DNA of 62,679 nucleotides from Alphaproteobacteria bacterium (GCA_027483385.1 JAIXUT010000195.1:1-62679), one strand, 5' to 3'. Shown: positions 18,996 through 38,908, numbered from the stretch's first letter. A program made the numbers and translations. The notes: generated by a model not told the origin, from the letters alone.

Positions 18996-19104
18996 GGGCA
19001 CTCGCAAAAGATGCCCCAACGGGTATCCGCAAGGGATACCCCGACGAATACCCAAACGCCAAAAAACCAGCATTTGTAAGAGCACCCGCAAGGGATGCCC
19101 CGAC
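18996..19104 (+). repeat. Late-gene hairpin repeats, 3 copies
   Basis: gggcactcgcaaaagatgccccaac (18996), gggtatccgcaagggataccccgac (19021) and agcacccgcaagggatgccccgac (19081). Confidence 0.8.
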
Positions 19105-19118
19105 GATGTTCCATAACC

Positions 19119-19970
19119 ATGATTAAATTACGCCAAAAAACCTCGCAAGTACAGGCCGCGCAACAGGTGAGTTCTGCTTTCGGAAGCATCTTTGCCGGTC
19201 TGGACAACGCGAAGGATCCAACACAGCGCGATTATTGTTCGATGGTTGTGTTTGGAGATTTAGGGACGGGAAAATCAACATTTCTTTCGCAGTTTGCGAA
19301 ACAGTATGTTGAAAAGAACTCAAGCAAAAAAGTGCCGCGTCGGGTGTTGATTGCGGATCCAAGTCGGGCCAAAGGGTTTGACATATATCCAACCATTACG
19401 CTTTCGGAAATTATGTACGGTTTTCACGACATAAAAACCGGCAAAGTGCGGCGCTGGACAAATGGAATTATGGTATTGCGGGATGTAGCCTGGAATAAAC
19501 CGGATTGGTTCAAAGTATTGACCGACCATTTTCAAAATGGTTTGGTGATCCTGGATGAATCGCGGAATTATATTCCAACAGACAAGTCGATGAATGCGGC
19601 GCAAAAGGAGTTTTTCACCATTCATCGTAATGCCTGTGTAGACGTGATGGTGGTGAGCCATGATTTTATGTCGCTTCACCTGGATTTGCGCAAAGCGTTT
19701 CGGGTGTATGTGGTATTTCGAACGGGCGATAAACCCAATAATGAGGCCTGGTTCACTACTCGAAGTTTGCCAGAAGATTTGTACAAGGCATGGAGGGTGG
19801 TGAGCCGCTTTCGTTCGCCTTCCGCAAAAATGTCGCCATTTGTTGTATTTGATCGAACGCTGCTAAAGTGGAGATTATATGCAGATACGGAGCGATTAGA
19901 GGTAATTGTACCGGACGAGGACAATCCGGGTAAAAATAAGATTGTCCCCTATAAATCTTTGAAACATTGA
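19119..19970 (+). CDS. Zot/pI-like P-loop NTPase (candidate assembly/packaging ATPase)
   Basis: 283 aa from ATG 19119. The ATG at 19095 lies inside a hairpin repeat. Walker A GDLGTGKST, Walker B LVILDES, and HRNACVDVMVVSHD, which resembles the Zot HRHxGxD block. Confidence 0.65.
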   Translation: MIKLRQKTSQVQAAQQVSSAFGSIFAGLDNAKDPTQRDYCSMVVFGDLGTGKSTFLSQFAKQYVEKNSSKKVPRRVLIADPSRAKGFDIYPTITLSEIMYGFHDIKTGKVRRWTNGIMVLRDVAWNKPDWFKVLTDHFQNGLVILDESRNYIPTDKSMNAAQKEFFTIHRNACVDVMVVSHDFMSLHLDLRKAFRVYVVFRTGDKPNNEAWFTTRSLPEDLYKAWRVVSRFRSPSAKMSPFVVFDRTLLKWRLYADTERLEVIVPDEDNPGKNKIVPYKSLKH

Positions 19971-19986
19971 AAAAATAACCAAAATC

Positions 19987-20679
19987 ATGGATAATAAAAA
20001 TTCAAAAAGCAAACCAACTCAGGCCAAAACCAAAGTTGCACCGCAAAACACTACACCACCACTCCAAAAGTTTCAATCACCCAACGAGGCTCATCCAAGT
20101 GAACGTATTGAGCGGCCAGTAGGACCAGTGTCAGAATGGACGGAAGAACAGGTAGAGCGCCGGTACCACGAAATAAAACATATCAAAGTAGAAACTATGC
20201 CAAGCGACGACCTTGACATTGTTTCAAGATATGGTTTAATTGCCAGCAAACGCCGCGAAAGTGCGGAAACCGCAGGCTTTCAAGCCGAAGTAACCAAGGT
20301 GCGTCGGCAGGTAGAAATTCATGCCAACCGTTATGCAACGGCCCAATTTGTCTTGGATCGTGCCAAAAAAAGTATCGGTGATGTGAAGCGGGGTGGGGCA
20401 CCAGTGCATGAAGGTTCAATTACCATCCAGTATGGTGACATTGCCGTTTCGGTGAAGTTTTCGGACGTTGTTGAAGCTTCGGCTTCGCCTAACAATGCCC
20501 TAACTGGCCAGTACGAAACCCTTTTCAAAAACGTGTGCGAACTCATCAAGAGCACATCCCAAATGGGACGTTCTCGGGCTGAGCGCAGCAACAAGAAGGA
20601 TTGGACGCCTTACACCAGTGATATCCGGTGGGTAAGCCACCTGAATGAATTGAACACATTGGAGGAGCAACCGTCGTAG
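19987..20679 (+). CDS. Hypothetical basic protein
   Basis: 230 aa with a Lys/Pro-rich N-terminus. Confidence 0.6.
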   Translation: MDNKNSKSKPTQAKTKVAPQNTTPPLQKFQSPNEAHPSERIERPVGPVSEWTEEQVERRYHEIKHIKVETMPSDDLDIVSRYGLIASKRRESAETAGFQAEVTKVRRQVEIHANRYATAQFVLDRAKKSIGDVKRGGAPVHEGSITIQYGDIAVSVKFSDVVEASASPNNALTGQYETLFKNVCELIKSTSQMGRSRAERSNKKDWTPYTSDIRWVSHLNELNTLEEQPS

Positions 20680-20748
20680 GGGCGACCTTTACGGTCGACC
20701 AATGATTAAAAAACCGTAATAATGGGCAGCCGCGAAGGCTGCCCCGAC
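20679..20748 (+). repeat. Late-gene hairpin repeats, 2 copies
   Basis: A variant ggggcgacctttacggtcgacc (20679) and gggcagccgcgaaggctgccccgac (20724), which has a perfect 8-bp stem. Confidence 0.7.
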
Positions 20749-20761
20749 AAACCAAAAAACA

Positions 20762-20959
20762 ATGGAAATCAGTATTCCCAAATGGCTTTTCATGGCATTG
20801 CTTGCAATGATTTTTTTGTCATGCAGCATTAGCATATACGCATCCATCAAGCGCATTCGTAACGAAAAAAAGGTACGATCCTTGCTTGATGCTGGAACTG
20901 TGCAGGTAAAACTGTCTGATTCTGAAATCGCCAAAATCGCCAAAGAAATCAAACAATGA
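20762..20959 (+). CDS. Small membrane protein (1 TM)
   Basis: 65 aa with the hydrophobic segment WLFMALLAMIFLSCSISIYA. Confidence 0.55.
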   Translation: MEISIPKWLFMALLAMIFLSCSISIYASIKRIRNEKKVRSLLDAGTVQVKLSDSEIAKIAKEIKQ

Positions 20960-21480
20960 TGGACCCTATTGCATCAACCCAAAATAAGCATATCAAAATT
21001 GAGTATATCATCATTGCGGGTTTACTGGCATTGATTATATTGTTGATACTGCGGTTATACTCAAAATTGATAAAAGAGCGTAAGCATAAGGCATTTTTGG
21101 CAGCAGAATTGGCTTGGCACCATAAAGCGACTTTGGTTAAGGAAATAAACGATGATCTTGGTTTAAATCAAGAAACTTATAAAAAACAAGGTGCTTATCT
21201 TCAATTGAAACCTACTTTATCCTTTGGGATAAAAATAGATACTGCATTTCCGTTTATTATTGAACGAAAAGGCAAAATGGTTGAAGTTAGAATAACGCAA
21301 TTTAAAGATGGAATTTCGCTTGGTTTGTCTAATGGTTCCGAAACTTGGTTCACAAATTATGATTTGGAGGACAATAACCAAGATTTAACTCTAACCAAGG
21401 AGGTTGTGGACAAAATCAATCTAATGCTTACCGATAGCCCACCCTTTGAAGAACCTGCTGACCATGAACCAAAATCCTAG
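20956..21480 (+). CDS. Membrane-anchored protein (N-terminal TM)
   Basis: 174 aa with an ATGA overlap and the segment IIIAGLLALIILLILRLY. Confidence 0.6.
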   Translation: MMDPIASTQNKHIKIEYIIIAGLLALIILLILRLYSKLIKERKHKAFLAAELAWHHKATLVKEINDDLGLNQETYKKQGAYLQLKPTLSFGIKIDTAFPFIIERKGKMVEVRITQFKDGISLGLSNGSETWFTNYDLEDNNQDLTLTKEVVDKINLMLTDSPPFEEPADHEPKS

Positions 21481-21760
21481 TACACATTACGAAGTCTGGC
21501 TGCAAGAAAACCCAATTAGATTGAAAATGGTCGATGGGTTTTATGTTTACAAAAGTGACATAGCGGCAGCTGTTTCCATGTCAATGAAGCACTTTTGGGA
21601 CAACATAAAAGTGATAGGGGATGCAAACCCGGAAATTGGCGATGAAATTGTAAAATTTAGAACAGCGCGGAAACTACCAATTCCCCTGGCTGAAAAAATT
21701 ATAAAGGAGTTGTTTTTGGGAAGCGATTTTCTTCGAATTGAATATCAAAACGCAACTTAA
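21464..21760 (+). CDS. Hypothetical protein
   Basis: 98 aa from ATG 21464. The track start at 21446 is a TTG. Confidence 0.5.
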   Translation: MNQNPSTHYEVWLQENPIRLKMVDGFYVYKSDIAAAVSMSMKHFWDNIKVIGDANPEIGDEIVKFRTARKLPIPLAEKIIKELFLGSDFLRIEYQNAT

Positions 21761-21805
21761 AGAGTTCATTTTTGCCGAATGATGATTATTTTAAGCATGT
21801 TATTG

Positions 21806-21834
21806 AAAGGGCCGCTGTAAAGTTGGCCCTTTCG
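21806..21834 (+). other. Stem-loop in the spacer before the major-protein gene
   Basis: A 9-bp perfect stem gaaagggcc/ggccctttc with an 11-nt loop and a weak T tail. Confidence 0.45.
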
Positions 21835-21998
21835 CCATTTTATACGGGGTTTTGAACCAAAAAGCAACTTTATCGCACTAAAACGCCACTGAAAACCCGA
21901 AAAACCCCGTAACGAACCCGGCATAAAAAGGTGAATCATTGAATTTTGGGCTTGCTAATAGGTACTAACCTTCAAATCACCAAAAGAAAATTTTTACA

Positions 21999-22691
21999 AT
22001 GACTCCATCTACGCTCCCAAGCCATATTGCGAAGCAAATTGCCGCTGGATTAGATTTTACCAAAGTCAAAACCGCTGGCGACAAAGTGGCAACCACTGCC
22101 GAGGTAACTGGACCACAAGTGACCCCGCAGGGTTCGCCTATTGATGGCCAGGTTGCAGTAACCAAAGGAAGTCCAGTCGAGCAATACGTCACCATCATTG
22201 TCGATACCACTGCGTTCGACGAAACGGACGACGTAACCGCAGTTATCGGCGATGCAAGCGGCGTTCACGAAAGCGATACTACCGAAGCGCTTGGTTCTTC
22301 CAATTTGGCTACGGTTTATATCGACAATTCTACGTCGACCAAGTACCAGGCTTTCCTGAACCGGTTGTGCTCAACACCTTACACTTTGACTGCGTTCAAT
22401 TTGCAAGTGACCAAAACCGCAGGTGCAGGTTCTGGCACTACCATCAATTTGCCGCAGTACATCAAGTTCAGCCGCAAGAATTTGAACGGCGTTGGCAACA
22501 ACGGCCGCATCGACGTTGCGAACTTTGAAAACCTGGAGGCATTCCCCCGGAATGACGTTCGCTACACGGATATCGCTTTGAACAGCGAAGCAAATCTGTT
22601 TGATCGCGACACGCAGTGGACCATCCCAGGTTTGGTAGGAAAACGCCTGTACAAGTTCACGTTGTACGTGGGCTTCCGCAAAGACAACTAG
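21999..22691 (+). CDS. Candidate major structural (coat) protein
   Basis: 230 aa, beta-rich, with no TM segment or signal peptide. It is preceded by a 238-bp spacer and followed by a strong intrinsic terminator. Confidence 0.45.
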   Translation: MTPSTLPSHIAKQIAAGLDFTKVKTAGDKVATTAEVTGPQVTPQGSPIDGQVAVTKGSPVEQYVTIIVDTTAFDETDDVTAVIGDASGVHESDTTEALGSSNLATVYIDNSTSTKYQAFLNRLCSTPYTLTAFNLQVTKTAGAGSGTTINLPQYIKFSRKNLNGVGNNGRIDVANFENLEAFPRNDVRYTDIALNSEANLFDRDTQWTIPGLVGKRLYKFTLYVGFRKDN

Positions 22692-22719
22692 GGTTGTTTT
22701 ACCCCGGATCCAAAACACG

Positions 22720-22755
22720 AACCGGCCCTCCAAACGGTTGGCCGGTTTGTGTTTA
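22720..22755 (+). terminator. Intrinsic terminator after the major-protein gene
   Basis: An 8-bp perfect stem aaccggcc/ggccggtt with a 12-nt loop, followed by tgtgttt. Confidence 0.6.
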
Positions 22756-22783
22756 AACGTACACTTTCAGCGCGAACGCAACG

Positions 22784-23257
22784 ATGCAATACAACACCCC
22801 GGAGTTGATCTCCATGATAACCACAAACAGCCTGTCAGCGATTCATTATCGCCTGGTGGAGCAAGGACGAATCAGTGGCACTAGCCAAGTGACGGCTGAT
22901 GCTGTCACTTACGCAATTCAGGAACGTATGGACGCGCTTCCTGCCGAGCAGTTCCTTGCCTGGTTTGAGCAATTGCTGGATGTACCGGTAGATCAACAAC
23001 ATTTATATGCATCCGAGTTGAATACCATTCGTGATCGTACTGGACAGTCGCCTGCATCTATTGTTGTAGATCAAATGCGCAAAGACCTAGGATTAACAGA
23101 CCCAAATGCCCCCGAAAACAAGTCCGTGCTTAAGGCACAAACAGCCAAAAATGTAAAGGTAGGACCACTTGGATTAGTGATGCTTGCCTTTGCGGCAATT
23201 GGCTTTTTGGCGGTGTTGCGGATTTTATTCAAGGTCATTTCAAACGCAATGGATTAA
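22784..23257 (+). CDS. Tail-anchored membrane protein
   Basis: 157 aa with the C-terminal TM segment LGLVMLAFAAIGFLAVLRILF. Confidence 0.6.
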   Translation: MQYNTPELISMITTNSLSAIHYRLVEQGRISGTSQVTADAVTYAIQERMDALPAEQFLAWFEQLLDVPVDQQHLYASELNTIRDRTGQSPASIVVDQMRKDLGLTDPNAPENKSVLKAQTAKNVKVGPLGLVMLAFAAIGFLAVLRILFKVISNAMD

Positions 23258-23273
23258 CCATATTTAAAAATTT

Positions 23274-23297
23274 GGTACCCGCAAGGGATACCTTGAC
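23274..23297 (+). repeat. Late-gene hairpin repeat
   Basis: ggtacccgcaagggataccttgac: a 7-bp stem with a bulged A and a GCAA loop, 10 nt before ATG 23308. Confidence 0.75.
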
Positions 23298-23307
23298 CCA
23301 TAAAACC

Positions 23308-23538
23308 ATGAAAAAAATGCTCAAACAGCGTTGGGTAATTGCCCTGCTCGCCGTTCTGGCCACTGCCGGAGCCATTTGGTATTACAACAAAATGAAAAAA
23401 GACGGCGCTGCCGATGCGGCTGGAACCACAACCACCGATACCAAAACGGCACCAAAAACGGCCCAAACTACCCCGCAGAAAATGGTAAACCCAAATTCTA
23501 CGTCGGCGGCATCGTTGACTGCAATTCGCTTGCGGTAA
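23308..23538 (+). CDS. Small membrane protein (1 TM)
   Basis: 76 aa from ATG 23308. The track start lies inside the repeat. TM segment WVIALLAVLATAGAIWYY, then a Thr/Ala-rich tail. Confidence 0.55.
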   Translation: MKKMLKQRWVIALLAVLATAGAIWYYNKMKKDGAADAAGTTTTDTKTAPKTAQTTPQKMVNPNSTSAASLTAIRLR

Positions 23539-23558
23539 TTGCAAATTAAAAAATTCAC

Positions 23559-24023
23559 ATGGCTTCATTATCGGTATTAAGCGCACTTAACGGTAGTAAA
23601 TGGGTTCAACGAAACTCAGCGATTATCGGCGCGGTGATAGCGATCGGGCTATTGTGGTATTTTTTTAAGCCTTACTTCAAAATCATTTTCGGGCTGATCC
23701 CCGAGGATGCACAGTTTACTCAGGGCGGCGGCGACATTACGGCTGAATTTTATGCAAAACGGCGCAATATCGCCGCCAACTTGAAATCGGTGCTCAATTC
23801 AAATGCTCTTTTGGCTTCTGGTCGATGTGATGCTTTGTACGATTTATTGCAGCGCAACGATAACGAAATTCGATTGATTGCGAATACCTACAAAAATCGG
23901 TATGGAACAACGCTGGTCGTTGAGGTAAACCAATTGTACACGGATGATTGTGGCTTTTTTGGCCTGTCACAAGGCCTGAATGTGACCTTGTTAAAACGGC
24001 TGAACGGCCTTCAACTTGCATAA
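23559..24023 (+). CDS. N-anchored membrane protein, paralog family member 1
   Basis: 154 aa with the TM segment SAIIGAVIAIGLLWYFF and the C-terminal motif C..LYDLL...NEIRLIANTYKNRY...C. Confidence 0.6.
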   Translation: MASLSVLSALNGSKWVQRNSAIIGAVIAIGLLWYFFKPYFKIIFGLIPEDAQFTQGGGDITAEFYAKRRNIAANLKSVLNSNALLASGRCDALYDLLQRNDNEIRLIANTYKNRYGTTLVVEVNQLYTDDCGFFGLSQGLNVTLLKRLNGLQLA

Positions 24024-24024
24024 C

Positions 24025-24754: not shown

Positions 24755-24757
24755 AAA

Positions 24758-25374: not shown

Positions 25375-25384
25375 AATCTGAACC

Positions 25385-25504: not shown

Positions 25505-25507
25505 TAT

Positions 25508-25675: not shown

Positions 25676-25681
25676 GAATAG

Positions 25682-25837: not shown

Positions 25838-25855
25838 CCTCAAAAAGTAAAAACC

Positions 25856-26281: not shown

Positions 26282-26302
26282 GGTAGGGGTATTTAAATAA
26301 TT

Positions 26303-26352
26303 GGGTACCCGCGAGGGATGCCCCGACTGGCACCCGCAAGGGATGCCCCAAC
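26303..26352 (+). repeat. Late-gene hairpin repeats, 2 tandem copies
   Basis: gggtacccgcgagggatgccccgac (26303) and ggcacccgcaagggatgccccaac (26329), 11 nt before ATG 26364. Confidence 0.8.
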
Positions 26353-26363
26353 GATAGATAAAA

Positions 26364-27383
26364 ATGAGCGGAAACTGCGGTAATAAACCTCCAGTACTAC
26401 GCCTGACACGCCGTACGGTGTATCAGGTAGTGAACCTTGTGTGGAATGATCGGAACAAATGTGCCGGTGCTCCAACACAGCGCCGTTTGCGCTGGAATTT
26501 TTACCGCAAAGGCAATTTGATTTATCAAACTGCTTTTGGAGCCACAGGTGCTTCTTTGCCCATCGGCAACGGTAGTACATACTTGTACCTAAATGCTACG
26601 CCTGCCGAAATTTCCGCTTATTTGATTGCACAAATGGTAAGTATTTCCGAAGGGGAAGTGCTTACCATTCGTGTGCAAGCCGTGAATTGTGATGCAGAAT
26701 ACGCGCTAAGCAATCCAATGCTTTTTCAGGCTACTATTCCTGTTTCGGGGTGCGATTGTGTGTATAACCGAACGCAAGTTACTGGCCTGACTGGTAATAG
26801 CGCATCGCTGCCTAGCCCCCTGAATGGCACCAATGGCATTTTGGCCTTCAAAAACGGAGTGCTGAATTACGGCGGATTGAATTTTGCCGCAAATGTGTTG
26901 GAAAGTGAAAACGAAGTGCAGTTCGTCACCATCGAAAACTGCACGACACCGCTTACCATATCATCGGTGGTAACGGGTATTACAGGCGGATCCGTACCAA
27001 TACCATCGGCATTTTTGCCATTATCTAATACCGAATACATGGTGTTCCGTAATGGGTTATTAGTGCGATCCATTGCTATTTTATCCGGGAATCTCGTGCT
27101 GGAAGGCACTTTGTCTGTACCTGAAGATGAATGGCTGTTTGTAGCGCTTAATACAAATCCGGCCAATGGATGTGTATTTGGCAAAATTACGATCGGTGCA
27201 AATATTTCAGGCGCAACGGCTATGCTTCCTTCAACCTATTCCGCTTCTAACCAAAACAAATGGCTGCTATTCAGGAATGGCGTTTTGCAGCATCCTGGTA
27301 ACGCATATACCGTTTCCGGCAACATGTTGTCGTTTGTCGACGCATTAGTTGGGGATGAACTTTGGATACAAACAATTGAGTAA
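26364..27383 (+). CDS. Structural protein with three internal ~70-aa repeats
   Basis: 339 aa. The repeated motif F(K/R)NG(V/L)L...SGN(L/M)...(E/D)EW(L/I) occurs three times. Confidence 0.55.
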   Translation: MSGNCGNKPPVLRLTRRTVYQVVNLVWNDRNKCAGAPTQRRLRWNFYRKGNLIYQTAFGATGASLPIGNGSTYLYLNATPAEISAYLIAQMVSISEGEVLTIRVQAVNCDAEYALSNPMLFQATIPVSGCDCVYNRTQVTGLTGNSASLPSPLNGTNGILAFKNGVLNYGGLNFAANVLESENEVQFVTIENCTTPLTISSVVTGITGGSVPIPSAFLPLSNTEYMVFRNGLLVRSIAILSGNLVLEGTLSVPEDEWLFVALNTNPANGCVFGKITIGANISGATAMLPSTYSASNQNKWLLFRNGVLQHPGNAYTVSGNMLSFVDALVGDELWIQTIE

Positions 27384-27408
27384 GGGTACCCGCAAGGGAT
27401 GCCCCGAC
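27384..27408 (+). repeat. Late-gene hairpin repeat
   Basis: gggtacccgcaagggatgccccgac, 16 nt before ATG 27425. Confidence 0.8.
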
Positions 27409-27424
27409 AACAAAGACCAAAACC

Positions 27425-28643: not shown

Positions 28644-31600
28644 ATGCGTAAATATTTGATTCCAATTATAATGTTGCTTATGGCCGTGATGCATGTAGAT
28701 GCACAAACGGTCAATGAGCGATTTTCGGGCTACGGCGTTATACAGGGCCGCACCGGAACTGGTCCATCTTATACCCTCAATATTGTTTCTTTTCAGGGCA
28801 GCCCCCGTTTTCAGCCCAACGGCACCTGGTTAGGTACCGATGTGTTGGTCGGCGATGTTGTATGGATTGATTGTGGCCGCTATGTTATTACGGCCAAAAA
28901 CTCAGCAGGCATAAGTAGCATGAACGTGACGGTGCAAATACCAGCCGCCGATGTTACAGCAGGTGTTACAGAACCGCCAACCGGGCAAGTGTGCGCGGTT
29001 ATGCGCGAATTGCCAGGGGCTATTCCGGCGTTTCCCGTTTCGGGCGACAATGCGGGCAGTGGGATACCGATTACGCTTAGTTCTTGTATTTTGAGCCATT
29101 ATGCGGGGATCCCAAAAGTGGATTCGGTGCGTACCACCTCGAGTAATGGAGGCGTGGTTGTTAAGGTGAATACCGTATCGGCACCGGCTGTTGAAATTTT
29201 GCCTGGTGCGATTGCTTCGGGTGGGGCTACGAGTGGGCAGGTATTGAAGTTCGATGGGAGCAATTGGGCTCCTGGTACTGACAATAATAGTGGAGGAAGT
29301 AGCGGCGGGAATCTATATGCTTTAGATACTGTAACACAAACGGCACATGGCTTTCGGGTAATGGATGCTGTTTTAGATACTTCAACTACGAGTACAAACA
29401 AATTCATAAAAGGCAATACAAGTAATCAAAACCTTCTACCTTCTCATTTGGTAGTAGATAGTTTGTCGGCAAATACGTTTGTTGTGCAGCGAGGAGGCTA
29501 CGTAAAGAAGAATCAAACGCGATTCACTGCTCGACAGGTGTACTATCTGCGGGATGATGGCAATTACGCATCATTGCCTGATGAAAACTATAATTTTCCT
29601 GTTTTTTCAATTACAGCTACCACTACGCCGATTTATTTAACCCCTTTTGTCGGAGGAAGTGGTGGTGGAAGTGGCATTGTCGATTCAGTTCGCGCAAGTT
29701 CTACCAATAACGGTATTGTGGTAAAAGTAAACCAGACATCTTCTCCTGCGGTGGAGATACTACCTGGCGCTATTGCGCAGGCAGGTGCTACGAGCGGAAA
29801 TGCACTTAAATGGAATGGTAGCAATTATGCACCCGGAAACATTGCAGCATCTGAGGTTACTTTTTCACCAATTACCAACATTACAGCTATTACTACACAG
29901 GAAGCAATAACTGAAACATCGGTAAAAAAAGACCTGTATTACAATCAGCTAAGAGATACCTTACCATGGAATGTTATAAAGGGGGAAGGAACTGCGACCG
30001 TTACGAGTGGGCCAATTCCTCAATCATATACCGGCGCCGGTTGCAACGTGACTTACGTATCTGCTCCATCATCAATACCAAATTCTGTTCGCCTTAAATA
30101 TAATCGGCGAATAAGAGGAAATGTGGCAACAGGCTCGTGTTTTGCATCTCGGACAATAACATGGCCAAGTCCTAAGCCTACAAAATTTGGGTGGGGATTT
30201 TGGGTCAACAATTTGCAGGTAGATACAATCTATCCTGGCACAACTGCTATGCAATGGTGGTTATACACGACTACAATAGTGGGGCTTCCTTCGTTTGCAA
30301 TCAGAGATATGATACAAAAAATAGGGAACAGCGCTACGGCTAACTTTTCGGTGGCCAGCAATTTCTCGGGTACTTGGACGGCGACGTGTATTGATAAAAA
30401 AGATGGCTACTCTTACATTGCAATAAATATAACTAACTTGGTGTATGATCCAGCATACACATCGCCAACCTGGGTACTTTACGACATTAAAAACAACGTA
30501 ACAGCAAGCCTGAATAACCGAAACTTTGATTATATCGGTTTTACTTGGCTTTGGGGCGAAACTATAACGTCTTCATCGGTTTACCCGGATGGCGGTGTAG
30601 TTCTCCAGTATCCGTACCCAACAGAAAAAGCGACAACCTCTGTAACATCGTTTAACGGGCGAGGAGGTGCAATTACACCGGTAAGTGGAGATTACACTGC
30701 CAGTACAATACCCTATACTCCGTCTGGAGGAAGCATAAGCACCGCATCAACTACAACTCAATTAGCGGTTGATGAATTATCAAAAGTAACAAGAAATAAC
30801 CTGTTGGCAGCAGGCGATACCCTACCATGGAACGTCATAAAAGGGGAGGGCACCGCAACCATTACAGGCGGGCCAATACCACAGTCTTTAGGAACGACAG
30901 GATTTACCAGCGCCTATGTCCCTACGACCTCTAATATGCCTAATTCGCACCGACTAAAATATTACAGACGGTTGATTGGTAACGCGGCATCTGGAAACTG
31001 CTTTTGGGTTACCCCTTCAATCACTTGGCCAACACCCAAGCCTACACAATTTGGATGGGGTTTTTGGGTTAGCGATACGCAAATAGATACAGTATTCCCA
31101 GGAACTACACAAAAAGTATTTTGGATATACCAAGCAAGTTTTGGGCAGGTTATTGAACCCTCTTTTCAAATCAGAAATCTGATACAAAGGGTAGGGAATA
31201 CCTCTACGGCAAATTTCAACTCAGTAGGGAAAGTATCTGGCACATGGACAGCAACTTGCCTTGACAAGCGTAACGGATACTCATATATTGCAGTCAATAT
31301 CACGAATCTTGTATTTGGTGTTGATATTGCAACGACATTTACTTTTTACGATTACATGCAAGGCGTTGTTGCCAATTTAAATGGGCGTAGACTAGACTAT
31401 ATAGGATTCACATGGCTTTGGGGTAACACAATAAATACATCATCGGTGTATCCAGATGGCGGTGCAGTTCAGCAATATCCAGTTCCAACCCAATATGTGG
31501 ATAAAAAATTTGGCGCAATAGACGCTACTTTGGCAACTTCACTAACATCGCAAACTGCCGGTACTATAATTGATTCCTTGTATAGCGGTATTTCAGTGCT

Positions 31601-33056
31601 AAAATCAGGATCATCTATATATGTAAGGTCGCCATACAATTCAACGCAGGACTTAGTTCATGTGCTTGGTTACAGCACTGGATCACAGATTAATCTTGGC
31701 GCAAGGGTAGTCCCTAAATCATCTTCAATTAATTTATCTGTTTATAGCGCTGCTGAGGTAATTAATTCGGGCAGCGACGATGCGGCCCCAATTAGCGTAA
31801 ATGGGACTTATATTGGAGCAAACCACGGGTGCAGTGACCTTAGAGTTGTTACTGCTACGGCGCACGGGAAAACAACGGCTGATGTTGGCAGTAAATGGAG
31901 GGATGCTGCCAGCAAAGACTTTTTTCTTGTCAAAATAGTAAACGCAAACGATCTTTGGTTTTTGTCGGTAGATACCTCATCTTCCGGCGATATATGGAAG
32001 CACGTGCTCACAATCACCGGAAACTTGACGCACGTTTCGGGCGCTACAAATACAGGTACCATTACAGTTGCATCCTATGTTGGCGGCCAAATGATGCCAG
32101 CAATAAAAAATTGTACGAACCAGTATTTGCTGGACGGCAAAAAGCCAATTACAGCAGATGGGATATATTATGGCCAATTCTTAGACATAATCAACAACTA
32201 TGATATTGTAGACCCTTCTAGTGCGGCTCTATACCTTAGCACACACATAGGGACGACGGACCTTACACAAGGCGACACTTTTGTAGGCCAAAAAATTGTA
32301 CATAGAATTGATAAGTGGGGGACCGTTCTTATAATGAACGATGTGGTTTTTTACAAAACTGCAAATCTTGGATACTTTGGATTTACACAGGTTTCTCCAT
32401 TGTCTACGGCGACTTACCCGAACAGGAAATTTTATTATCCTCGTACCCTTCCGGTATCAGATGGTGCAACAAGTTGGGATTTTAGAACGCTGAGAGATTT
32501 TACCACGTTTCCAGCCGCCGCCTTAAACTTTACGTCAGCCTTTTGGGAAACATCTGGCTTTGTTCCTGAAAGGGCAATTGAGTACATAGCAAATGGAAGC
32601 AATCTAATCCATGGTTTTGCACATGGATTTGTTCCTACTCTTGGTGTTGGGGATAGCATACAAAGGTTTGCGAGCGTAAATAATGCTGGTTTTATATTCA
32701 CATCAGGCAAGAACTATCCTTTTGGGATAGATACAAAAATAGGCTCTCCGGTAACAGCCGGAACATGGAAAAGCGCTGTGGCATACCGCCGATACTTTGA
32801 CGCAAGCGCAAATAGTCTTGGCAAGAAAAGTAGTTTGTACTACTATACCGTTGGAAGTGAAACATTTGTATATGTTGATTACCATACGACGGTAAAAGGG
32901 GATAAAGTATCGCTTCCTGCGGAGTTGCGCGGGAAAAAGATATCGGTAGTCTACAAATCATCAAACCTTACAATCAACAGTCAATTCTCAACGGATGGCA
33001 TATTTATCAGTATGCCAACGGGAAGTTACGGTTTTGTTTGCCTAAAATTAATTTAA
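28644..33056 (+). CDS. Giant fibre/spike-like protein with Sec-type signal peptide and internal duplications
   Basis: 1470 aa. N-terminus MRKYLIPIIMLLMAVMHVDAQ. The GATSGQVLKFDGSNWAPG-type motif occurs twice, and there are two ~225-aa homologous domains ~287 aa apart (DTLPWNVIKGEGTAT...WLWG.TI..SSVYPDGG). Confidence 0.7.
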   Translation: MRKYLIPIIMLLMAVMHVDAQTVNERFSGYGVIQGRTGTGPSYTLNIVSFQGSPRFQPNGTWLGTDVLVGDVVWIDCGRYVITAKNSAGISSMNVTVQIPAADVTAGVTEPPTGQVCAVMRELPGAIPAFPVSGDNAGSGIPITLSSCILSHYAGIPKVDSVRTTSSNGGVVVKVNTVSAPAVEILPGAIASGGATSGQVLKFDGSNWAPGTDNNSGGSSGGNLYALDTVTQTAHGFRVMDAVLDTSTTSTNKFIKGNTSNQNLLPSHLVVDSLSANTFVVQRGGYVKKNQTRFTARQVYYLRDDGNYASLPDENYNFPVFSITATTTPIYLTPFVGGSGGGSGIVDSVRASSTNNGIVVKVNQTSSPAVEILPGAIAQAGATSGNALKWNGSNYAPGNIAASEVTFSPITNITAITTQEAITETSVKKDLYYNQLRDTLPWNVIKGEGTATVTSGPIPQSYTGAGCNVTYVSAPSSIPNSVRLKYNRRIRGNVATGSCFASRTITWPSPKPTKFGWGFWVNNLQVDTIYPGTTAMQWWLYTTTIVGLPSFAIRDMIQKIGNSATANFSVASNFSGTWTATCIDKKDGYSYIAINITNLVYDPAYTSPTWVLYDIKNNVTASLNNRNFDYIGFTWLWGETITSSSVYPDGGVVLQYPYPTEKATTSVTSFNGRGGAITPVSGDYTASTIPYTPSGGSISTASTTTQLAVDELSKVTRNNLLAAGDTLPWNVIKGEGTATITGGPIPQSLGTTGFTSAYVPTTSNMPNSHRLKYYRRLIGNAASGNCFWVTPSITWPTPKPTQFGWGFWVSDTQIDTVFPGTTQKVFWIYQASFGQVIEPSFQIRNLIQRVGNTSTANFNSVGKVSGTWTATCLDKRNGYSYIAVNITNLVFGVDIATTFTFYDYMQGVVANLNGRRLDYIGFTWLWGNTINTSSVYPDGGAVQQYPVPTQYVDKKFGAIDATLATSLTSQTAGTIIDSLYSGISVLKSGSSIYVRSPYNSTQDLVHVLGYSTGSQINLGARVVPKSSSINLSVYSAAEVINSGSDDAAPISVNGTYIGANHGCSDLRVVTATAHGKTTADVGSKWRDAASKDFFLVKIVNANDLWFLSVDTSSSGDIWKHVLTITGNLTHVSGATNTGTITVASYVGGQMMPAIKNCTNQYLLDGKKPITADGIYYGQFLDIINNYDIVDPSSAALYLSTHIGTTDLTQGDTFVGQKIVHRIDKWGTVLIMNDVVFYKTANLGYFGFTQVSPLSTATYPNRKFYYPRTLPVSDGATSWDFRTLRDFTTFPAAALNFTSAFWETSGFVPERAIEYIANGSNLIHGFAHGFVPTLGVGDSIQRFASVNNAGFIFTSGKNYPFGIDTKIGSPVTAGTWKSAVAYRRYFDASANSLGKKSSLYYYTVGSETFVYVDYHTTVKGDKVSLPAELRGKKISVVYKSSNLTINSQFSTDGIFISMPTGSYGFVCLKLI
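29955..31490 (+). repeat. Diverged tandem domain duplication inside the 1470-aa gene
   Basis: Unit 1 spans ~29955-30620 and unit 2 ~30815-31490 (period ~860 bp). A shorter duplicated module lies at ~29110-29280 and ~29680-29850. Confidence 0.75.
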
Positions 33057-33058
33057 AC

Positions 33059-34597: not shown

Positions 34598-34644
34598 TAG
34601 AACCTTTTTAAAATAAACTCAGCATAACAACAACCAAATTAACC

Positions 34645-35520
34645 ATGAAAAACCAAACAATCATCTTTCTCTTGCTCGCGCTCTTTTCAGGCCATTTTGC
34701 AAGCATTGCCCAGGCACAAACCCAAAGTACCCCAGATTTTTCAATCGGAAAAATCATCATCATTTCGCAAACGCACCGGATCGACAATCCCGATGGCACC
34801 ACCAGTTACCATCCCGATACGCTGGAAATTGAATCCCGCAAATGGGACGATGGCACCAGTGCGGATCAATATTATATTCAAGGCAACTTGCCTTTTGATT
34901 TTAACTCAGTAAAAGGAAATGGGCACTACATGGTCGATGGGCATTATGTGCCTTTTACTTCTCGACCTACTACGCTTTTGAATATCAATCCGGCATTCAA
35001 AACGGCTGAATACGTAACTACCGCAGATGTTAAGCAGGTTTACAAAACGGCTGAATACCATACTGCTCAAGATAGTATTGTATCATCCAGCCCCATTGTA
35101 ATGGCCGTACACGATGGCGATTCGTACAAAATAAAATCGGTTGTTACGGAATGGGTGCGCATTATGGGCATTGATTGTCCCGAAGTGATCAGCAACCATA
35201 TCAAGGCCAACCAAGCCTTTGGTGTAGCCATTGGAGATAGTATTCGGGCGCTTATCAAAGGCAAGCCGGTTACCATGAAAACGTATGGCAAGGACCGGTA
35301 CCATCGCACCCTGGCGCAAGTATTTGTAAATGGGCGTGACATTGCAGAGATCATCCTGGAGCACGGGTGGGCTTGGTATTATACTTCTGATTTGGATAAA
35401 GATACCCGCAAAAAGTATCAAAAATTGCGGGATTACGCGAAGAAGAATAAATACGGAATTTGGTCGGTCCCTAATCCGGTAAAGCCTGCTGATTTTAGGC
35501 GTGCTAACTGGAAGGATTAA
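34645..35520 (+). CDS. Secreted thermonuclease (SNase-like) domain protein
   Basis: 291 aa. Signal peptide MKNQTIIFLLLALFSGHFASIAQAQ. The C-terminal half carries VHDGDSYKIK...VRIMGIDCPE...GKDRYHRTLAQVFVNGRDIAEIILEHGWAW, the staphylococcal nuclease pattern. Confidence 0.7.
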   Translation: MKNQTIIFLLLALFSGHFASIAQAQTQSTPDFSIGKIIIISQTHRIDNPDGTTSYHPDTLEIESRKWDDGTSADQYYIQGNLPFDFNSVKGNGHYMVDGHYVPFTSRPTTLLNINPAFKTAEYVTTADVKQVYKTAEYHTAQDSIVSSSPIVMAVHDGDSYKIKSVVTEWVRIMGIDCPEVISNHIKANQAFGVAIGDSIRALIKGKPVTMKTYGKDRYHRTLAQVFVNGRDIAEIILEHGWAWYYTSDLDKDTRKKYQKLRDYAKKNKYGIWSVPNPVKPADFRRANWKD

Positions 35521-35540
35521 AGTACCCAAACCCTAAAAAT

Positions 35541-35605
35541 CGCACCCGCGAGGGATGCTTTGATAAACCACCCTAAAAACGGGCACCCGCTAGGGATGCC
35601 CCGAC
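35541..35605 (+). repeat. Late-gene hairpin repeats, 2 copies
   Basis: cgcacccgcgagggatgctttgat (35541) and gggcacccgctagggatgccccgac (35581). Each is preceded by ccctaaaaa. Confidence 0.8.
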
Positions 35606-35617
35606 CAAACCACAGCA

Positions 35618-36013
35618 ATGTCTACCTTCAAAATACCCAAAGCAGCCAATATTATCCGTGATGGCGATCCTGTGATTATCACTGGCATGGGCCTTCAATC
35701 TATACGTTCGGAAGATATCTTTGTCGAAACCGGTTTTGCTTTTTTGTACGACCCAATTAAGCGAAAGTTCAATATCTACCACTACGCCAAAGTAGGGGAG
35801 GTAACCTCTTTTGAGTTTGCAACGCGCTGCGCTGCTGATCGTGAAATCCCTTTCAGCATTATTTCCAACCGAAACGGTGCAAAATTCAACCTGGTCGTTG
35901 GTGATTATGAAAAATCGACTGTGTACGGTACCAGTTTAAATAAGAACACCAAACTTATCAGCATTGCGCCCGAGCAACGCGAAGGTTTATCTGCTGAAAT
36001 ATTGAACCCCTAA
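35618..36013 (+). CDS. Hypothetical soluble late protein
   Basis: 131 aa with no TM segment. Confidence 0.55.
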   Translation: MSTFKIPKAANIIRDGDPVIITGMGLQSIRSEDIFVETGFAFLYDPIKRKFNIYHYAKVGEVTSFEFATRCAADREIPFSIISNRNGAKFNLVVGDYEKSTVYGTSLNKNTKLISIAPEQREGLSAEILNP

Positions 36014-36023
36014 ATCCCGTATA

Positions 36024-36359
36024 ATGGAAATGTTGCACAAAATATGTGTAAATGTACTGGCCGGAATACTTGGATGGGTATTCATATCGCTGCCCAAAGT
36101 TGCATCTAAAAGTATGACTTGGATCATGCTTTTATCCTCAATCGGTTTAGCCGGTGTAGTAGGTTTTGTAAGTAGCAGTTTTATCACTTACCTCATACCA
36201 AGCGCTCCGGTTGATGTTGTTGCCGCTATTTCGGCGGTATTGGGCGCATACTGTAATCATTTTATGGAGCGCATGTGGAATATCGCCGATATGGTTGCCG
36301 ATAAAATTGAGGACCAAATACACCCAGATCATACCGACAAGGATAAACCCCAACAATAA
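36024..36359 (+). CDS. Membrane protein (2-3 TM)
   Basis: 111 aa with the segments VLAGILGWVFISL, IMLLSSIGLAGVVGFV and VVAAISAVLGAY. Confidence 0.6.
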   Translation: MEMLHKICVNVLAGILGWVFISLPKVASKSMTWIMLLSSIGLAGVVGFVSSSFITYLIPSAPVDVVAAISAVLGAYCNHFMERMWNIADMVADKIEDQIHPDHTDKDKPQQ

Positions 36360-36365
36360 ACCATT

Positions 36366-36382
36366 GCAGCCGAAAGGGCTGC
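36366..36382 (+). repeat. Hairpin variant with GAAA loop
   Basis: gcagccgaaagggctgc, 30 nt before ATG 36413. Confidence 0.5.
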
Positions 36383-36412
36383 TGCTACTGTCACCAATTT
36401 CAATTTTATCAA

Positions 36413-36856
36413 ATGAAAAACATTTTAAACTTCATCAAATTCACCTGTGCAATCATTGCTTGCATGTTTGTTGCAATCATGCCCGCAATGGCGCAATCCG
36501 TTGTTGATCCTACTACGGTGGTCGATCCAACCAACCCATTGTCTTTTGTTAGCCAAAACGCCGTGGATGTGCTTACCGTAGCGCTTACCGTAATACTTGC
36601 ATTTTTCTCCGGGGCTATCCCGGCGTTGAAAAAAATCAATGCAGGTTTTTTGCGGGCATTGGCTTCTGCAATCATCATTGTAGCAGGTACGGCAACGTTC
36701 AAATTCGGTTTTTTGAACCAAGAATCGGTTGATTTTGTGTTCAAAACCTTTTTACCAAACTTCGCCTATTCCGGGCTGATATGGGAAGCAATCAAGTTTG
36801 CGTTCAAATTAGCCGGGGTTGAACTGAAAAATTATACCCCCAATACCGGCGCATAG
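36413..36856 (+). CDS. Polytopic membrane protein
   Basis: 147 aa with a signal-like N-terminus and 3 further hydrophobic segments. Confidence 0.6.
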   Translation: MKNILNFIKFTCAIIACMFVAIMPAMAQSVVDPTTVVDPTNPLSFVSQNAVDVLTVALTVILAFFSGAIPALKKINAGFLRALASAIIIVAGTATFKFGFLNQESVDFVFKTFLPNFAYSGLIWEAIKFAFKLAGVELKNYTPNTGA

Positions 36857-36871
36857 TACTCCAAAAAATTT

Positions 36872-36900
36872 GGTCCCGGTTCAATTATTGAGCCGGGGCC
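36872..36900 (+). repeat. Hairpin variant before ATG 36921
   Basis: ggtcccggtt...agccggggcc forms a 10-bp stem with two G-U pairs, followed by an A/C-rich spacer. Confidence 0.45.
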
Positions 36901-36920
36901 AATCCCAAAAGCCAAACTCG

Positions 36921-37580
36921 ATGAAACCCTCCGTTAAAGATATCTTTTTGTACCTGCTGGCTGGTGTCAGTGTGTACGCCATGCTGCATGCGCACCAATG
37001 CACCAATATCGGGACCAATAGCCCTATTGATCAGGCACCAATTGTGCTTACCGATACAGAGTACGTGAAAACCGTTATTGATCGCATCATAATTATCCGG
37101 GATACGGCAATTCAGTACCTTCCTAATCCGGATTCATCGGTGCTCATCATACAGGCAGAACCGGATACCACAGGTGGCAACAACGAGTATATGAATATCA
37201 TGGAAGGTACTTTGAAAGGGGAACAGTGTACCTATCACTATCAGGCTGGCATATCGCAGGATTCATTGCAGTTCCTTTACATAGATTCCGAGTGTACCTC
37301 AACAATACCTGAAATTGTAACATCGGAGCCTGACTATTCATTGCCTGATCCTCCAGTATTTTCAAACAAAAGCGGGAATTATCCATGGGTAGGATTCAAA
37401 TCTGGCTGGTCCCCATGGGCACCGTCAAAGGGATCCAGTTTTGGCATACACGGTGGGGTAGGTGTGTTTTATGGCGGCGTCAATATGCTCACCGGCATCA
37501 ACGCCATTCAGTTTGAAGCCGGTATGCAGTTCGTTATAAAACCCAAAGCCCGGTTATTTGCTGAAAAACCGCCCAAATAA
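36921..37580 (+). CDS. N-anchored membrane protein
   Basis: 219 aa from ATG 36921. The track start is a TTG inside the hairpin. TM segment IFLYLLAGVSVYAML. Confidence 0.55.
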   Translation: MKPSVKDIFLYLLAGVSVYAMLHAHQCTNIGTNSPIDQAPIVLTDTEYVKTVIDRIIIIRDTAIQYLPNPDSSVLIIQAEPDTTGGNNEYMNIMEGTLKGEQCTYHYQAGISQDSLQFLYIDSECTSTIPEIVTSEPDYSLPDPPVFSNKSGNYPWVGFKSGWSPWAPSKGSSFGIHGGVGVFYGGVNMLTGINAIQFEAGMQFVIKPKARLFAEKPPK

Positions 37581-37656
37581 TCAACAAAAAGCATAAACCC
37601 CAATCAACAAGTCACCTGAAAAACGCTAAGTTGCTGAATTTTAGGGCTTAATAACA

Positions 37657-37680
37657 GGTAGCCGCGAGGGCTACCGCAAC
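37657..37680 (+). repeat. Late-gene hairpin repeat
   Basis: ggtagccgcgagggctaccgcaac with a perfect 7-bp stem, 18 nt before ATG 37699. Confidence 0.75.
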
Positions 37681-37698
37681 AACGAATCCTCCAAGATT

Positions 37699-38043
37699 AT
37701 GAAATGTAACCCTGATCAAATCGAAATTAACGGGAAATGCCAAGACGCATACATGCAAGGCGATTATAACCTTGATGGTACACCGGACGTGCCTGGAAGC
37801 AGTAACGACGGCAGTAAATTTTGGGGAAAATTTGGCAGTTTTTTCGATAAATACGGCGAAGTAATTGTCAACAGCGCTGGTGAAGTGATAAAAGCCAACC
37901 AAGGCCAAGGGAAACAAACCCCTCCTCAACCTTTGCCGTCCACTACGACACCAACCAATCAAGTACCTAAATGGGTATGGGTTGCAGGAACGTTGGGGCT
38001 TGTGGCAGTAGTGGTTTTGGTGATCCGCAGCCGGAAAAAATAG
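37699..38043 (+). CDS. Cys-containing tail-anchored membrane protein
   Basis: 114 aa. The N-terminal ectodomain-like part begins MKCNPDQIEINGKCQ. C-terminal TM segment WVWVAGTLGLVAVVVLVI. Confidence 0.6.
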   Translation: MKCNPDQIEINGKCQDAYMQGDYNLDGTPDVPGSSNDGSKFWGKFGSFFDKYGEVIVNSAGEVIKANQGQGKQTPPQPLPSTTTPTNQVPKWVWVAGTLGLVAVVVLVIRSRKK

Positions 38044-38115
38044 GCTGCAAAATGCCTGTTTTTTATTCCCCAAAAAACCGAGAAAATATTCCTCAACCCA
38101 AAACATTGCCCAAAA

Positions 38116-38280
38116 ATGGCTAAGAAAGCAAAAGAAATGCCCGTCATGTTGCATGGTATGTTCAAAACCAAAGCCAAGGCTGAAGAGCGTATGGCGAAGG
38201 TAAGAAAAGAGCATCCGACGCGTAGCGTAATGGTAAGAGCCACAACGAATGGCAAATATTTCGTGAAAAGTATGGCGTAA
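38116..38280 (+). CDS. Small basic protein (54 aa)
   Basis: MAKKAKEMPVMLHGMFKTKAKAEERMAKVRKEHPTRSVMVRATTNGKYFVKSMA. It fills a gap in the track and is below the 60-aa cutoff. Confidence 0.45.
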   Translation: MAKKAKEMPVMLHGMFKTKAKAEERMAKVRKEHPTRSVMVRATTNGKYFVKSMA

Positions 38281-38360
38281 GGGCTGCCCTTGCGGCTGCC
38301 CCCCGGCAAGCGAAGCAAGCCGGGCGACCGAAAATGGGCGACCGCAAGGGATGCCCCGAC
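38281..38360 (+). repeat. Late-gene hairpin repeats (one degenerate, one extra hairpin, one canonical)
   Basis: A degenerate copy gggctgcccttgcggctgcccc (38281), the hairpin cccggc/gccggg (38302-38324) and gggcgaccgcaagggatgccccgac (38336). Confidence 0.65.
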
Positions 38361-38384
38361 GATAACCCAATAACCAAACAACCC

Positions 38385-38552
38385 ATGTGTAAACAAAAAG
38401 AAGGGGCCGAACTCGACCCAAATCAGCCCGATTGTGGCTGCACCAGCTGTAACAATCGCCGCAAATGGATGATCGGCGCAGCAATCACCGTGGCTGCATT
38501 GTCGGCAATCGGCATCTGGATGTACTTCAAACGCCGTAAGGCTGCTGCATAA
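38385..38552 (+). CDS. Small Cys-rich tail-anchored membrane protein
   Basis: 55 aa from ATG 38385. Contains CKQ...DCGCTSC, then the TM segment WMIGAAITVAALSAIGIWMYF. Confidence 0.5.
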   Translation: MCKQKEGAELDPNQPDCGCTSCNNRRKWMIGAAITVAALSAIGIWMYFKRRKAAA

Positions 38553-38908
38553 TGTCCTGCAAACTCGGTCAGTTCGATCAACAGGGCAACTACGTGTGCC
38601 CCACAGGATACCTTTCTGTGATTTTGCCCAATGCGCAACGTTGTTGTGTATTGGGTAAAGACATTACAGACGAAATGATCATTGACGCAGGCAACTTGCC
38701 GGAAGTAGTAATTTCATCAAACAAAGTCCAAGATCCTTCAATCCCCGAAAATCCAGCGAAGCCTTCAGGCACCTGGACAACTTGGATCAAAAAAAATTGG
38801 TACTGGATTGTGATGCCGTTTGCGCTTTCACTGGTGTATTACGCGTATCTGAAATTTTCACAACGTAAACGGGTAGCCGCGAGGGCTACCGCAGCAACCC
38901 CAAACTAG
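38552..38908 (+). CDS. Cys-rich tail-anchored membrane protein
   Basis: 118 aa with a TAATG overlap. Contains MSCKLG...VCPTG...RCCVLG, then the TM segment WYWIVMPFALSLVYYAYL. Confidence 0.6.
   Translation: MSCKLGQFDQQGNYVCPTGYLSVILPNAQRCCVLGKDITDEMIIDAGNLPEVVISSNKVQDPSIPENPAKPSGTWTTWIKKNWYWIVMPFALSLVYYAYLKFSQRKRVAARATAATPN
38871..38895 (+). repeat. Late-gene hairpin repeat (inside the 3' end of the preceding CDS)
   Basis: gggtagccgcgagggctaccgcagc, 13 nt before ATG 38909. Confidence 0.75.

Follow-up and report, generated by a model that had tools for sequence, protein, structure and literature searches.

REPs, or repetitive extragenic palindromes, are short (20-40 nucleotides), G+C-rich imperfect palindromes with one bulged base, a four-nucleotide loop and a four-nucleotide unpaired head, and those of chromosomes are propagated by RAYT transposases (REP-associated tyrosine transposases) acting on single-stranded DNA. 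They lie outside genes, for the most part between co-directional or convergent ones. Short elements repeated between genes are also reported from phages, namely the intercistronic C(UUCG)G hairpins of T4, reportedly described by Tuerk and colleagues in 1988, and the intercistronic RNase III sites of T7, said to have been described by Dunn and Studier in 1983. Elements of the T4 and T7 kind define processed ends and the stability of transcript segments; they are intrinsic to the phage and stand outside the mobile repeat families of the host. The stoperators of cluster A mycobacteriophages, reportedly the subject of work by Brown and co-workers in 1997, are a third system of repeated sites. What defines GTAG-type REPs and their RAYTs has been set out in several studies (PMC3733652; PMC2817692; PMC3116915), and systems of RAYTs and REPINs (inverted REP doublets) are considered to be passed on vertically and not to occur on horizontally moving elements (bioRxiv 10.1101/2021.07.10.451892). 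This study concerns a family of short hairpins carried by a temperate phage that is integrated in a 62,679-nucleotide stretch of DNA deposited as Alphaproteobacteria bacterium (GCA_027483385.1 JAIXUT010000195.1:1-62679), the whole of which is called the window below. These hairpins are very probably members of the GTAG-type REP family.

The hairpin family

A repeated, co-oriented family of hairpins had been noticed in the 18996-38895 region in a preliminary description of this DNA, and its existence was confirmed by two kinds of search. A Hamming scan of the window with a 25-nucleotide (nt) consensus, GGGCACCCGCAAGGGATGCCCCGAC, tolerating up to nine mismatches, returned 15 matches on the plus strand and four on the minus strand, against about two on both strands combined in shuffled sequences. 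A covariance model (R1), built from 14 copies with the structure ..((((((((....))).)))))...... and searched against the whole window with filters off, gave 14 plus-strand matches with E < 1e-3, which span 18996-38897 and start at 18996, 19021, 19080, 20724, 23273, 26303, 26328, 27384, 35540, 35581, 36364, 37656, 38336 and 38871. On the minus strand there was a clear match at 38275-38303 (21 bits) and a weak one at 20674-20702 (10.8 bits), and the search of the full 62.7-kb window found no match outside 18.9-38.9 kb. The earlier statement that all copies are on the plus strand is correct for 14 of them and has to be amended for those at 20679 and 38281, which are inverted copies ending in CTAC or TTAC on the minus strand. 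Among the looser variants proposed at that time, the one at 36366 belongs to the family (R1 match at 36364) and the one at 36872 is a different hairpin and not a member.

The copies have the consensus GGGYACCC-GNRA-GGGATGCCC-CRAC and are spread, 14 co-oriented and two inverted, over ten gaps between genes. Each unit comprises a 21-nt stem-loop followed by a 4-nt tail, and all copies fold, with energies of -8 to -18 kcal/mol, into a stem of 6-8 base pairs (bp) closed by a GNRA-type loop; in the G6:C16 variants a pentaloop takes its place. About 86.6% of the cells are paired in the 14 window copies, compared with 37-58% once the 3' partners are slid. Covariation was assessed in 36 distinct copies drawn from the window, a related phage and a metagenome-assembled genome (MAG) of the host lineage, Saprospiraceae. 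Double-sided changes were found in 14 cells, a number reached by none of 500 shuffles, and the covarying columns are 6:20 (C:G to U:A) and 7:19 (A:U to G:C). The hairpin structure is real and the covariation modest, so that the fold and the covarying stem proposed earlier both stand.

The terminator scan showed no U-tract after any plus-strand copy; apart from variants given below, the tails are CGAC or CAAC and are followed by A/C-rich sequence. Intrinsic terminators, already doubted in the preliminary description, were rejected as a candidate because the scan lists no plus-strand copy and U-tracts are missing, whereas the phage has canonical hairpin-plus-T8 terminators at 41213-41290. The comparison with Rfam that had been suggested was made and no family matched: with Rfam 15, the whole window gave no match at the gathering threshold and site A (defined below) none at E <= 1.

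Occurrence in bacterial chromosomes

The 22-nt core of the hairpin, GGGYACCCGCRAGGGATGCCCC, was found in at least 120 unrelated metagenome contigs with G+C contents of 0.34-0.65. Among the matches listed, 101 of the 112 distinct core copies end in TAC or CTAC, i.e., they read GTAG-GGGCATCCCTTGCGGGTGCCC on the opposite strand, 33 copies are accompanied within 70 nt by an inverted partner that begins GTAGGG, and a RAYT gene lies beside or around the REP at seven loci (L038/L118, L138, L143, L086, L068 and L096). With the NCBIfam model 'REP-associated tyrosine transposase', whose cut-off is 80 bits, two of these RAYTs score 83.6 and 80.7 bits, and the RAYT gene of L138 lies between two inverted REP copies. 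A hidden Markov model made from three RAYTs did not find such a gene among the six-frame open reading frames (ORFs) of the phage window.

The motif with the RAC tail was searched for in one genome per species, 185,579 species genomes in all, and was recovered on two contigs of the Saprospiraceae MAG C1_MAG_00026, together with single chance-like matches in high-GC genomes. Both pieces of C1_MAG_00026 are chromosomal, with genes for SusC/SusD, MiaB, MsrB, an ADP-ribosylglycohydrolase and two glycine transfer RNAs (tRNA-Gly). These loci, selected for holding matches, have eight significant R1 copies in 16 kb on both strands, including copies 4 and about 40 nt 5' of tRNA genes, one 13 nt 5' of an ATG and a cluster of three; a housekeeping gene is also among the neighbours of these copies. 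In the IMG/VR collection no match to the RAC-tailed motif was found, and the 22-nt core was present in one of 2.9 million contigs, in an unrelated high-GC context.

Because the core sits in chromosomes near tRNA genes, within ORFs and flanking RAYTs, and is CTAC-ended in 90% of cases, it is not to be read as a promoter or operator of the phage. The preliminary description had proposed a phage-specific late promoter, operator or regulator site. That proposal has to be given up in view of a core present in at least 120 metagenome contigs and a MAG chromosome, linked to RAYTs and missing in relatives of the phage. It had likewise considered that the motif might be a common host REP dispersed in the chromosome, and this is largely what was found, the REP family being dispersed in bacterial chromosomes. 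What remains of its overall reading is the structured intercistronic hairpin, with a role in RNA stability or processing as the most plausible one; the idea of a phage-specific element does not.

Regulatory sites peculiar to the phage could take the form of hairpins bound by a regulator (similar to stoperators or to the MS2 and boxB sites) or of late promoters used by a polymerase or sigma factor of the phage. Such sites would be expected to be highly conserved in sequence, as the copies are down to the bulged A and the tail, and they would fit about 15 co-oriented copies placed right 5' of genes in one operon with a RAC tail specific to the phage and one MAG. The identical core is nevertheless dispersed through many bacterial chromosomes in linkage with RAYTs, phage relatives carrying the same genes lack the family, a variable tandem copy number would be odd for operators or promoters, and Rfam offers no match. 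The phage proteins, most of them unannotated, include no recognisable polymerase, sigma factor or RNA-binding protein, and on balance such sites are highly improbable.

Several other candidates were rejected. A sigma-70 scan was at chance level and the Bacteroidota -7 boxes (TAnnTTTG) are not associated with the copies, which counts against the promoter, and integron attC sites, RNase III sites and boxB/nut sites were rejected on size, copy number, missing partner features and chromosomal distribution.

The chromosomal loci have features of their own. An inverted REP doublet lies within an ASPIC/UnbV-like reading frame of a Saprospiraceae chromosome (L002 7777-7843). Three diverged RAYTs (L143 8-652, L096 408-1034 and L086 612-1223) have an in-frame, REP-coded insert right after the HUH motif, at the same place in all three, which encodes GASLAGA/GAGLAPA-type peptides. 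Across loci L027-L146 the 22-nt core is identical although the linked RAYTs share merely 33-55% identity. The constancy of the core in contigs with G+C contents from 0.34 to 0.65 may reflect either unusually strong conservation or horizontal spread.

Arrangement of the copies in the window and in related phages

All ten sites (A-J) are gaps between co-directional genes, with one copy overlapping the final 38 nt of an ORF. The hairpins lie -4 to 75 nt from the preceding stop codon, and 10-24 nt separate the end of the final copy in each array from the next start codon if the starts at 19119 and 38385 are used. Since the ATGs at 19095 and 38334 fall inside a hairpin or on its border, translation of the ATPase gene probably begins at 19119 and that of the small ORF at 38385. 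With these two corrections the short upstream spacing described earlier applies to the array-final copies.

A phage 82% identical to that of the window (L035/L148, with L116) carries hairpins at the same eight sites A-H, in differing copy numbers. Site A (plus strand, 18996-19104) has three head-to-tail hairpins (18996-19020, 19021-19045 and 19080-19104, with R1 scores of 23.5, 40.9 and 41.4 bits) between the stop of a 305-aa gene at 18992 and the ATPase gene with its probable true start at 19119; two copies are found in the relative (L148 1022 and 1044). Site B (20676-20748, both strands) is an inverted, REPIN-like doublet with the heads outward. Its minus copy at 20676-20700 (GGTCGACCGTAAAGGTCGCCCCTAC, 10.8 bits) has a GTAG head and overlaps the stop at 20679, its plus copy lies at 20724-20748 (39.6 bits), and the next start codon is at 20762; where the window has one inverted and one direct copy, the relative has one inverted and two direct. 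The single plus-strand copy of site C (23273-23297, 34.4 bits) has an ATG (23308) 10 nt downstream and is represented by two copies in the relative. At site D (plus strand, 26303-26352) a head-to-tail doublet detected by R1 separates a 141-aa gene from a 339-aa gene (ATG 26364). The relative has three copies there, and some of the orthologues are distinguished by paired substitutions with which the stem is preserved. Site E (plus strand, 27384-27408) is a single copy abutting the stop at 27383, 16 nt ahead of ATG 27425, and is the best R1 match (43.1 bits); in the relative it corresponds to three copies, one inverted and two direct.

Site F (plus strand, 35540-35605) lies between the SNase-domain gene and ATG 35618 and comprises two copies, 35540-35564 and 35581-35605, both found by R1, against four in the relative. 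The variant at site G (plus strand, 36364-36388, 28.4 bits), which has a GAAA loop, a perfect stem and a CTAC tail 24 nt from ATG 36413, is single in the window and doubled in the relative. Site H (plus strand, 37656-37680, 36.9 bits) has the variant GGTAGCC-GCGA-GGGCTACC with the tail CAAC, 18 nt from ATG 37699; the relative also has one copy, identical in stem and loop and different at one tail base (G to A). A second inverted doublet with outward heads forms site I (38277-38360, both strands; minus 38277-38301 and plus 38336-38360), recovered by both the Hamming scan and R1 ahead of the small ORF with its probable start at 38385; one extra direct copy is present in the relative. Finally, site J (plus strand, 38871-38895, 33.4 bits) is a variant overlapping the 3' end of ORF 38552-38908, 13 nt from ATG 38909, and is conserved in the relative.

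More distant relatives (L147, L151, L155 and L156), with the same genes and anchor proteins 41-65% identical, lack the family; one weak look-alike in L156 is the sole trace, and most of their intergenic gaps are short and lack structure. In L147 and L151 the gap 5' of the 339-aa gene, where the window has the REP doublet of site D, holds a canonical hairpin-plus-T-run terminator. A megablast search of the GenBank phage collection found no relative. Since the family is present in the close phage and missing in the distant ones, the hairpins are a recent, lineage-specific gain whose number turns over at fixed sites.

These comparisons bear on whether the copies might be selfish or neutral passengers, brought in by a RAYT of the host and multiplied through slippage, with no phage function, that persist where they are harmless (in gaps, and in the orientation in which they neither form terminators nor obstruct start sites). 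The differing copy numbers at sites A-G of two phages 82% identical would be expected of passengers, as would the short, plain gaps of distant relatives without hairpins and the insertion of the family elsewhere into ORFs, even RAYT genes, which is typical of mobile DNA. Harder to reconcile with such an origin are the retention of eight of eight sites despite 18% nucleotide divergence, the 14:2 co-orientation, the confinement to one of several co-oriented gene blocks and a density far above that of chromosomal loci. The same is true of the paired changes that preserve the stem in orthologous copies (site D) and of the mutated head, with which mobility should have been lost. We regard pure passengers as somewhat unlikely.

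The copies also have consequences for annotation. An ATG within GGGATGCCC yields false gene starts and the hairpins yield spurious antisense ORFs, for example 18213-19091, 26293-26580 and 37648-38484, an artefact that the preliminary description had rightly pointed out. More generally, dense, covarying and co-oriented hairpins 5' of phage genes may mimic a new regulatory RNA and yet be a mobile palindrome of host type.

Proposed role of the phage copies

The phage copies depart from chromosomal REPs in head, organisation, orientation and density. The tails of the 14 plus-strand copies are GAC in eight cases, AAC in three, CTAC in one and others (AGC and GAT) in two, and the corresponding heads are GTCG or GTTG in 11 of 14, GTAG in one, and GCTG and ATCA in one each; the two inverted copies have the tails CTAC and TTAC. 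Inverted doublets make up two of the ten sites, the remainder being singletons or head-to-tail arrays. Fourteen of the 16 copies are co-oriented with the genes, and the mRNA then has GCAA or GCGA loops. The density of about 0.7 copies/kb over 20 kb of phage is several-fold above typical chromosomal values; for comparison, about 20 further copies occur in 614 kb of loci selected for holding a REP.

All copies are held in a putative single transcription unit of about 24 kb on the plus strand (17288-41290), delimited by sequence motifs. A Bacteroidota-type -7 box, TAAATTTG, is found at 17288, the next intergenic plus-strand TAnnTTTG is at 41169, and canonical hairpin-plus-T8 terminators follow at 41213-41255 and 41262-41290. 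With no intergenic -7 box between 17288 and 41169 and the terminators thereafter, all hairpins appear to lie in one transcription unit. Repeated TACCGRAAAT boxes stand directly 5' of the first gene of the operon, both in the window (17447-17478) and in a 61%-identical relative (L155 3695-3745), and are candidate operator or activator sites for it.

A role at the level of DNA or of the antisense strand was also considered, i.e., cruciforms or protein-binding sites (for gyrase or nucleoid proteins, as in the bacterial interspersed mosaic elements, BIMEs, of E. coli) or antisense terminators. An A-rich tract 5' of some copies forms a T-run on the minus strand, and the terminator scan lists four copies as hairpin-plus-T on that strand (35601, 35558, 23292 and 36382), but a T4-5 run is present on the minus strand in only four or five of the 14 copies. 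REPs are reported to bind proteins that act on DNA (PMC3733652; PMC2817692). Strict co-orientation with transcription is, however, not predicted by a DNA-level role, and GNRA loops arise on the plus strand only, and such roles are regarded as highly improbable.

The explanation preferred here, which we consider moderately probable, is that the phage acquired REPs from its host and has kept them as intercistronic RNA stem-loops that act as barriers to mRNA decay. We infer that they entered most likely during the prophage state, by means of a host RAYT acting in trans on single-stranded prophage DNA, and would then have multiplied locally by tandem duplication over ten gaps of one operon of about 24 kb. 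The change of head from GTAG to GTCG or GTTG would have made the copies poor RAYT substrates, frozen in place, because cleavage by the E. coli RAYT depends on GTAG: the enzyme cuts at this sequence and its mutation abolishes cleavage (PMC3733652). Given the GNRA-loop orientation of 14 of the 16 copies, each gap would be transcribed into one to three very stable stem-loops with no U-tract. These would act as is established for REPs in enterobacterial operons: they would be barriers to 3'-to-5' exonucleases and would cap the 5' ends of downstream segments after processing, so that segment stability and expression of a long polycistronic mRNA would be tuned and transcription not terminated. The occurrence of REPs between cistrons is credited to Higgins et al. 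1982 (Nature 298:760, as cited in PMC12306157) and stabilisation of mRNA by REPs to Newbury et al. 1987 (Cell 48:297, as cited in PMC7509114). By this analogy, the chances that the hairpins have an RNA-stability role seem about evenly balanced.

Some selective value of the copies is suggested by the retention of sites, co-orientation, confinement to a single transcription unit and substitution for a terminator. Several observations weigh against acquisition and retention of this kind, or against parts of it. No copy was found in about 31 kb around attB, the bacterial attachment site, of two host relatives (80-85% nucleotide identity). In the phage copies G:U pairs (eight cells) are only slightly commoner than A:C (four cells), which does not demonstrate strand-specific selection on hairpin RNA. 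The phage operon is far denser in copies than any chromosomal locus seen, so that passive spill-over from the host is insufficient, and head-to-tail arrays and a non-GTAG head are atypical for REPs (PMC3733652). Hairpin-free relatives manage with short, unstructured gaps, so the module can work in their absence. That relatives can dispense with them and that their copy number is in flux together argue for a large passenger component.

A stronger proposition is that the phage has captured and domesticated host REPs, which, head-mutated, co-oriented and tandem-amplified, would serve as its own intercistronic RNA punctuation and would have replaced one ancestral terminator. We consider this unlikely. 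If it were true, this phage would be the first clear example of a virus that harbours a population of REPs, and phages would be plausible carriers of REP families between bacteria, which would fit the identical core across G+C contents of 0.34-0.65. REPs borne by a phage contrast with the view of REPIN/RAYT systems as strictly vertical, and they offer a natural test of the effects of REPs as RNA and of the capacity of viruses to move REPs between hosts. A REP population on a temperate phage is an unusual variant and no new class of element.

The prophage and its other features

The integrated temperate phage occupies 101-62580 of the window (about 62.5 kb) between direct repeats of AAAAAATAATATCCTGTTAA at 101-120 and 62561-62580; the 20-bp repeat AAAAAATAATATCCTGTTAA has a corresponding locus in L158 (9560-9590). 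A 62,492-bp metagenome contig carries the same phage genes in circularly permuted order, with the integrase beside the left-end genes, and an uninfected relative has an intact attB between a recJ-like gene and ndk. These are the genes that flank the prophage, and the nearest named NDKs are from Saprospiraceae, Saprospirales and Lewinellaceae. Through these NDK relatives and the RAC-tailed cores of a Saprospiraceae MAG, the phage is tied to the Saprospiraceae lineage. An alpha/beta-hydrolase (lipase-like) gene on the minus strand (12679-14520) has a type IX secretion C-terminal sorting domain; it is likely to be cargo (a moron) and points to a Bacteroidota host.

Recognisable phage genes include DnaB, two DNA methyltransferases, a Strawberry-notch-like helicase, a GH108/M15 lysis pair and the integrase. 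No terminase, portal or major capsid protein could be recognised in the phage by Pfam or PHROGs, and its virion may be tailed and very divergent, or else non-tailed. The 17.5-41 kb block is nearly free of Pfam and PHROG matches, apart from a Zot/FtsK-like P-loop ATPase, an SNase domain and weak tail-fibre-like matches; examples of ORFs in the hairpin block (17485-41029) are 19119-19970, 21999-22691 and 28644-33056. In a distant relative the counterpart of the large protein has a K1-lyase_C tailspike domain. The AlphaFold model of the 230-aa protein (predicted local distance difference test, pLDDT, 71) retrieved non-significant beta-sandwich or jelly-roll look-alikes from the PDB and BFVD, and sequence searches of the PDB with the module proteins were empty. 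A structural or late role of the hairpin-bearing module is plausible; the word 'late' in the preliminary description stands as an inference, for which the weak tail-fibre-like matches are the one support.

Other hairpins were observed in and around this module. Directly 3' of the 230-aa gene, a hairpin followed by a T-run (22715-22765) is kept in every relative examined (L147 6449-6560, L151 1555-1638, L155 10697-10766 and L156 10706-10778), and it has the appearance of an internal attenuator or terminator, conserved behind the gene of a probably abundant protein. The hairpin at 36872-36900, which does not belong to the REPs, has the arms GGTCCCGG...CCGGGGCC and no U-tract; it is syntenic in L116 4365-4395 and L147 20751-20776, and compensatory changes preserve its stem in close and distant relatives. 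At 41169-41290 a promoter-like TATATTTG is followed, about 40-120 nt further on, by two hairpin-plus-T8 terminators, and this segment may be a small RNA gene between two rightward operons.

Comparison with known systems

The elements of the window are most similar to the GTAG REPs and REPINs of enterobacteria and pseudomonads, i.e., the REPs and BIMEs of E. coli and Salmonella and the REPINs of Pseudomonas (GTAG families of Di Nocera et al. 2013, PMC3733652; Bertels and Rainey 2011, PMC3116915), in being 25-nt G+C-rich imperfect palindromes with a 4-nt head. As with GTAG REPs, the copies are extragenic, lie between co-directional genes and form outward-headed inverted doublets at two sites, and their core is identical to that of the GTAG-ended copies flanking RAYTs in chromosomes. 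They differ in being mostly singletons or head-to-tail arrays, which are rare in chromosomes (PMC3733652), and not mainly the inverted pairs of REPINs and BIMEs. In contrast to RAYT/REPIN systems, they are carried by a temperate phage with no RAYT in the element.

With intrinsic terminators the window copies share a G+C-rich hairpin 3' of a gene, and distant relatives have a terminator in the gap of site D; the lack of a U-tract sets the copies apart. The intercistronic elements of T4 and T7 are likewise very stable stem-loops repeated between the cistrons of long phage transcripts. Those of T7, however, are long duplexes cut by RNase III, whereas the window stems have 8 bp, and the T4 loop is UUCG in place of GNRA. 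Stoperators (about 20-30 copies) resemble the window hairpins as short, conserved and co-oriented motifs in intergenic gaps along phage operons, but they are asymmetric, phage-specific DNA sites of 13-14 bp for a repressor, whereas the window motif is a palindrome shared with chromosomes. The window hairpins share ancestry with neither the T4 hairpins nor the stoperators.

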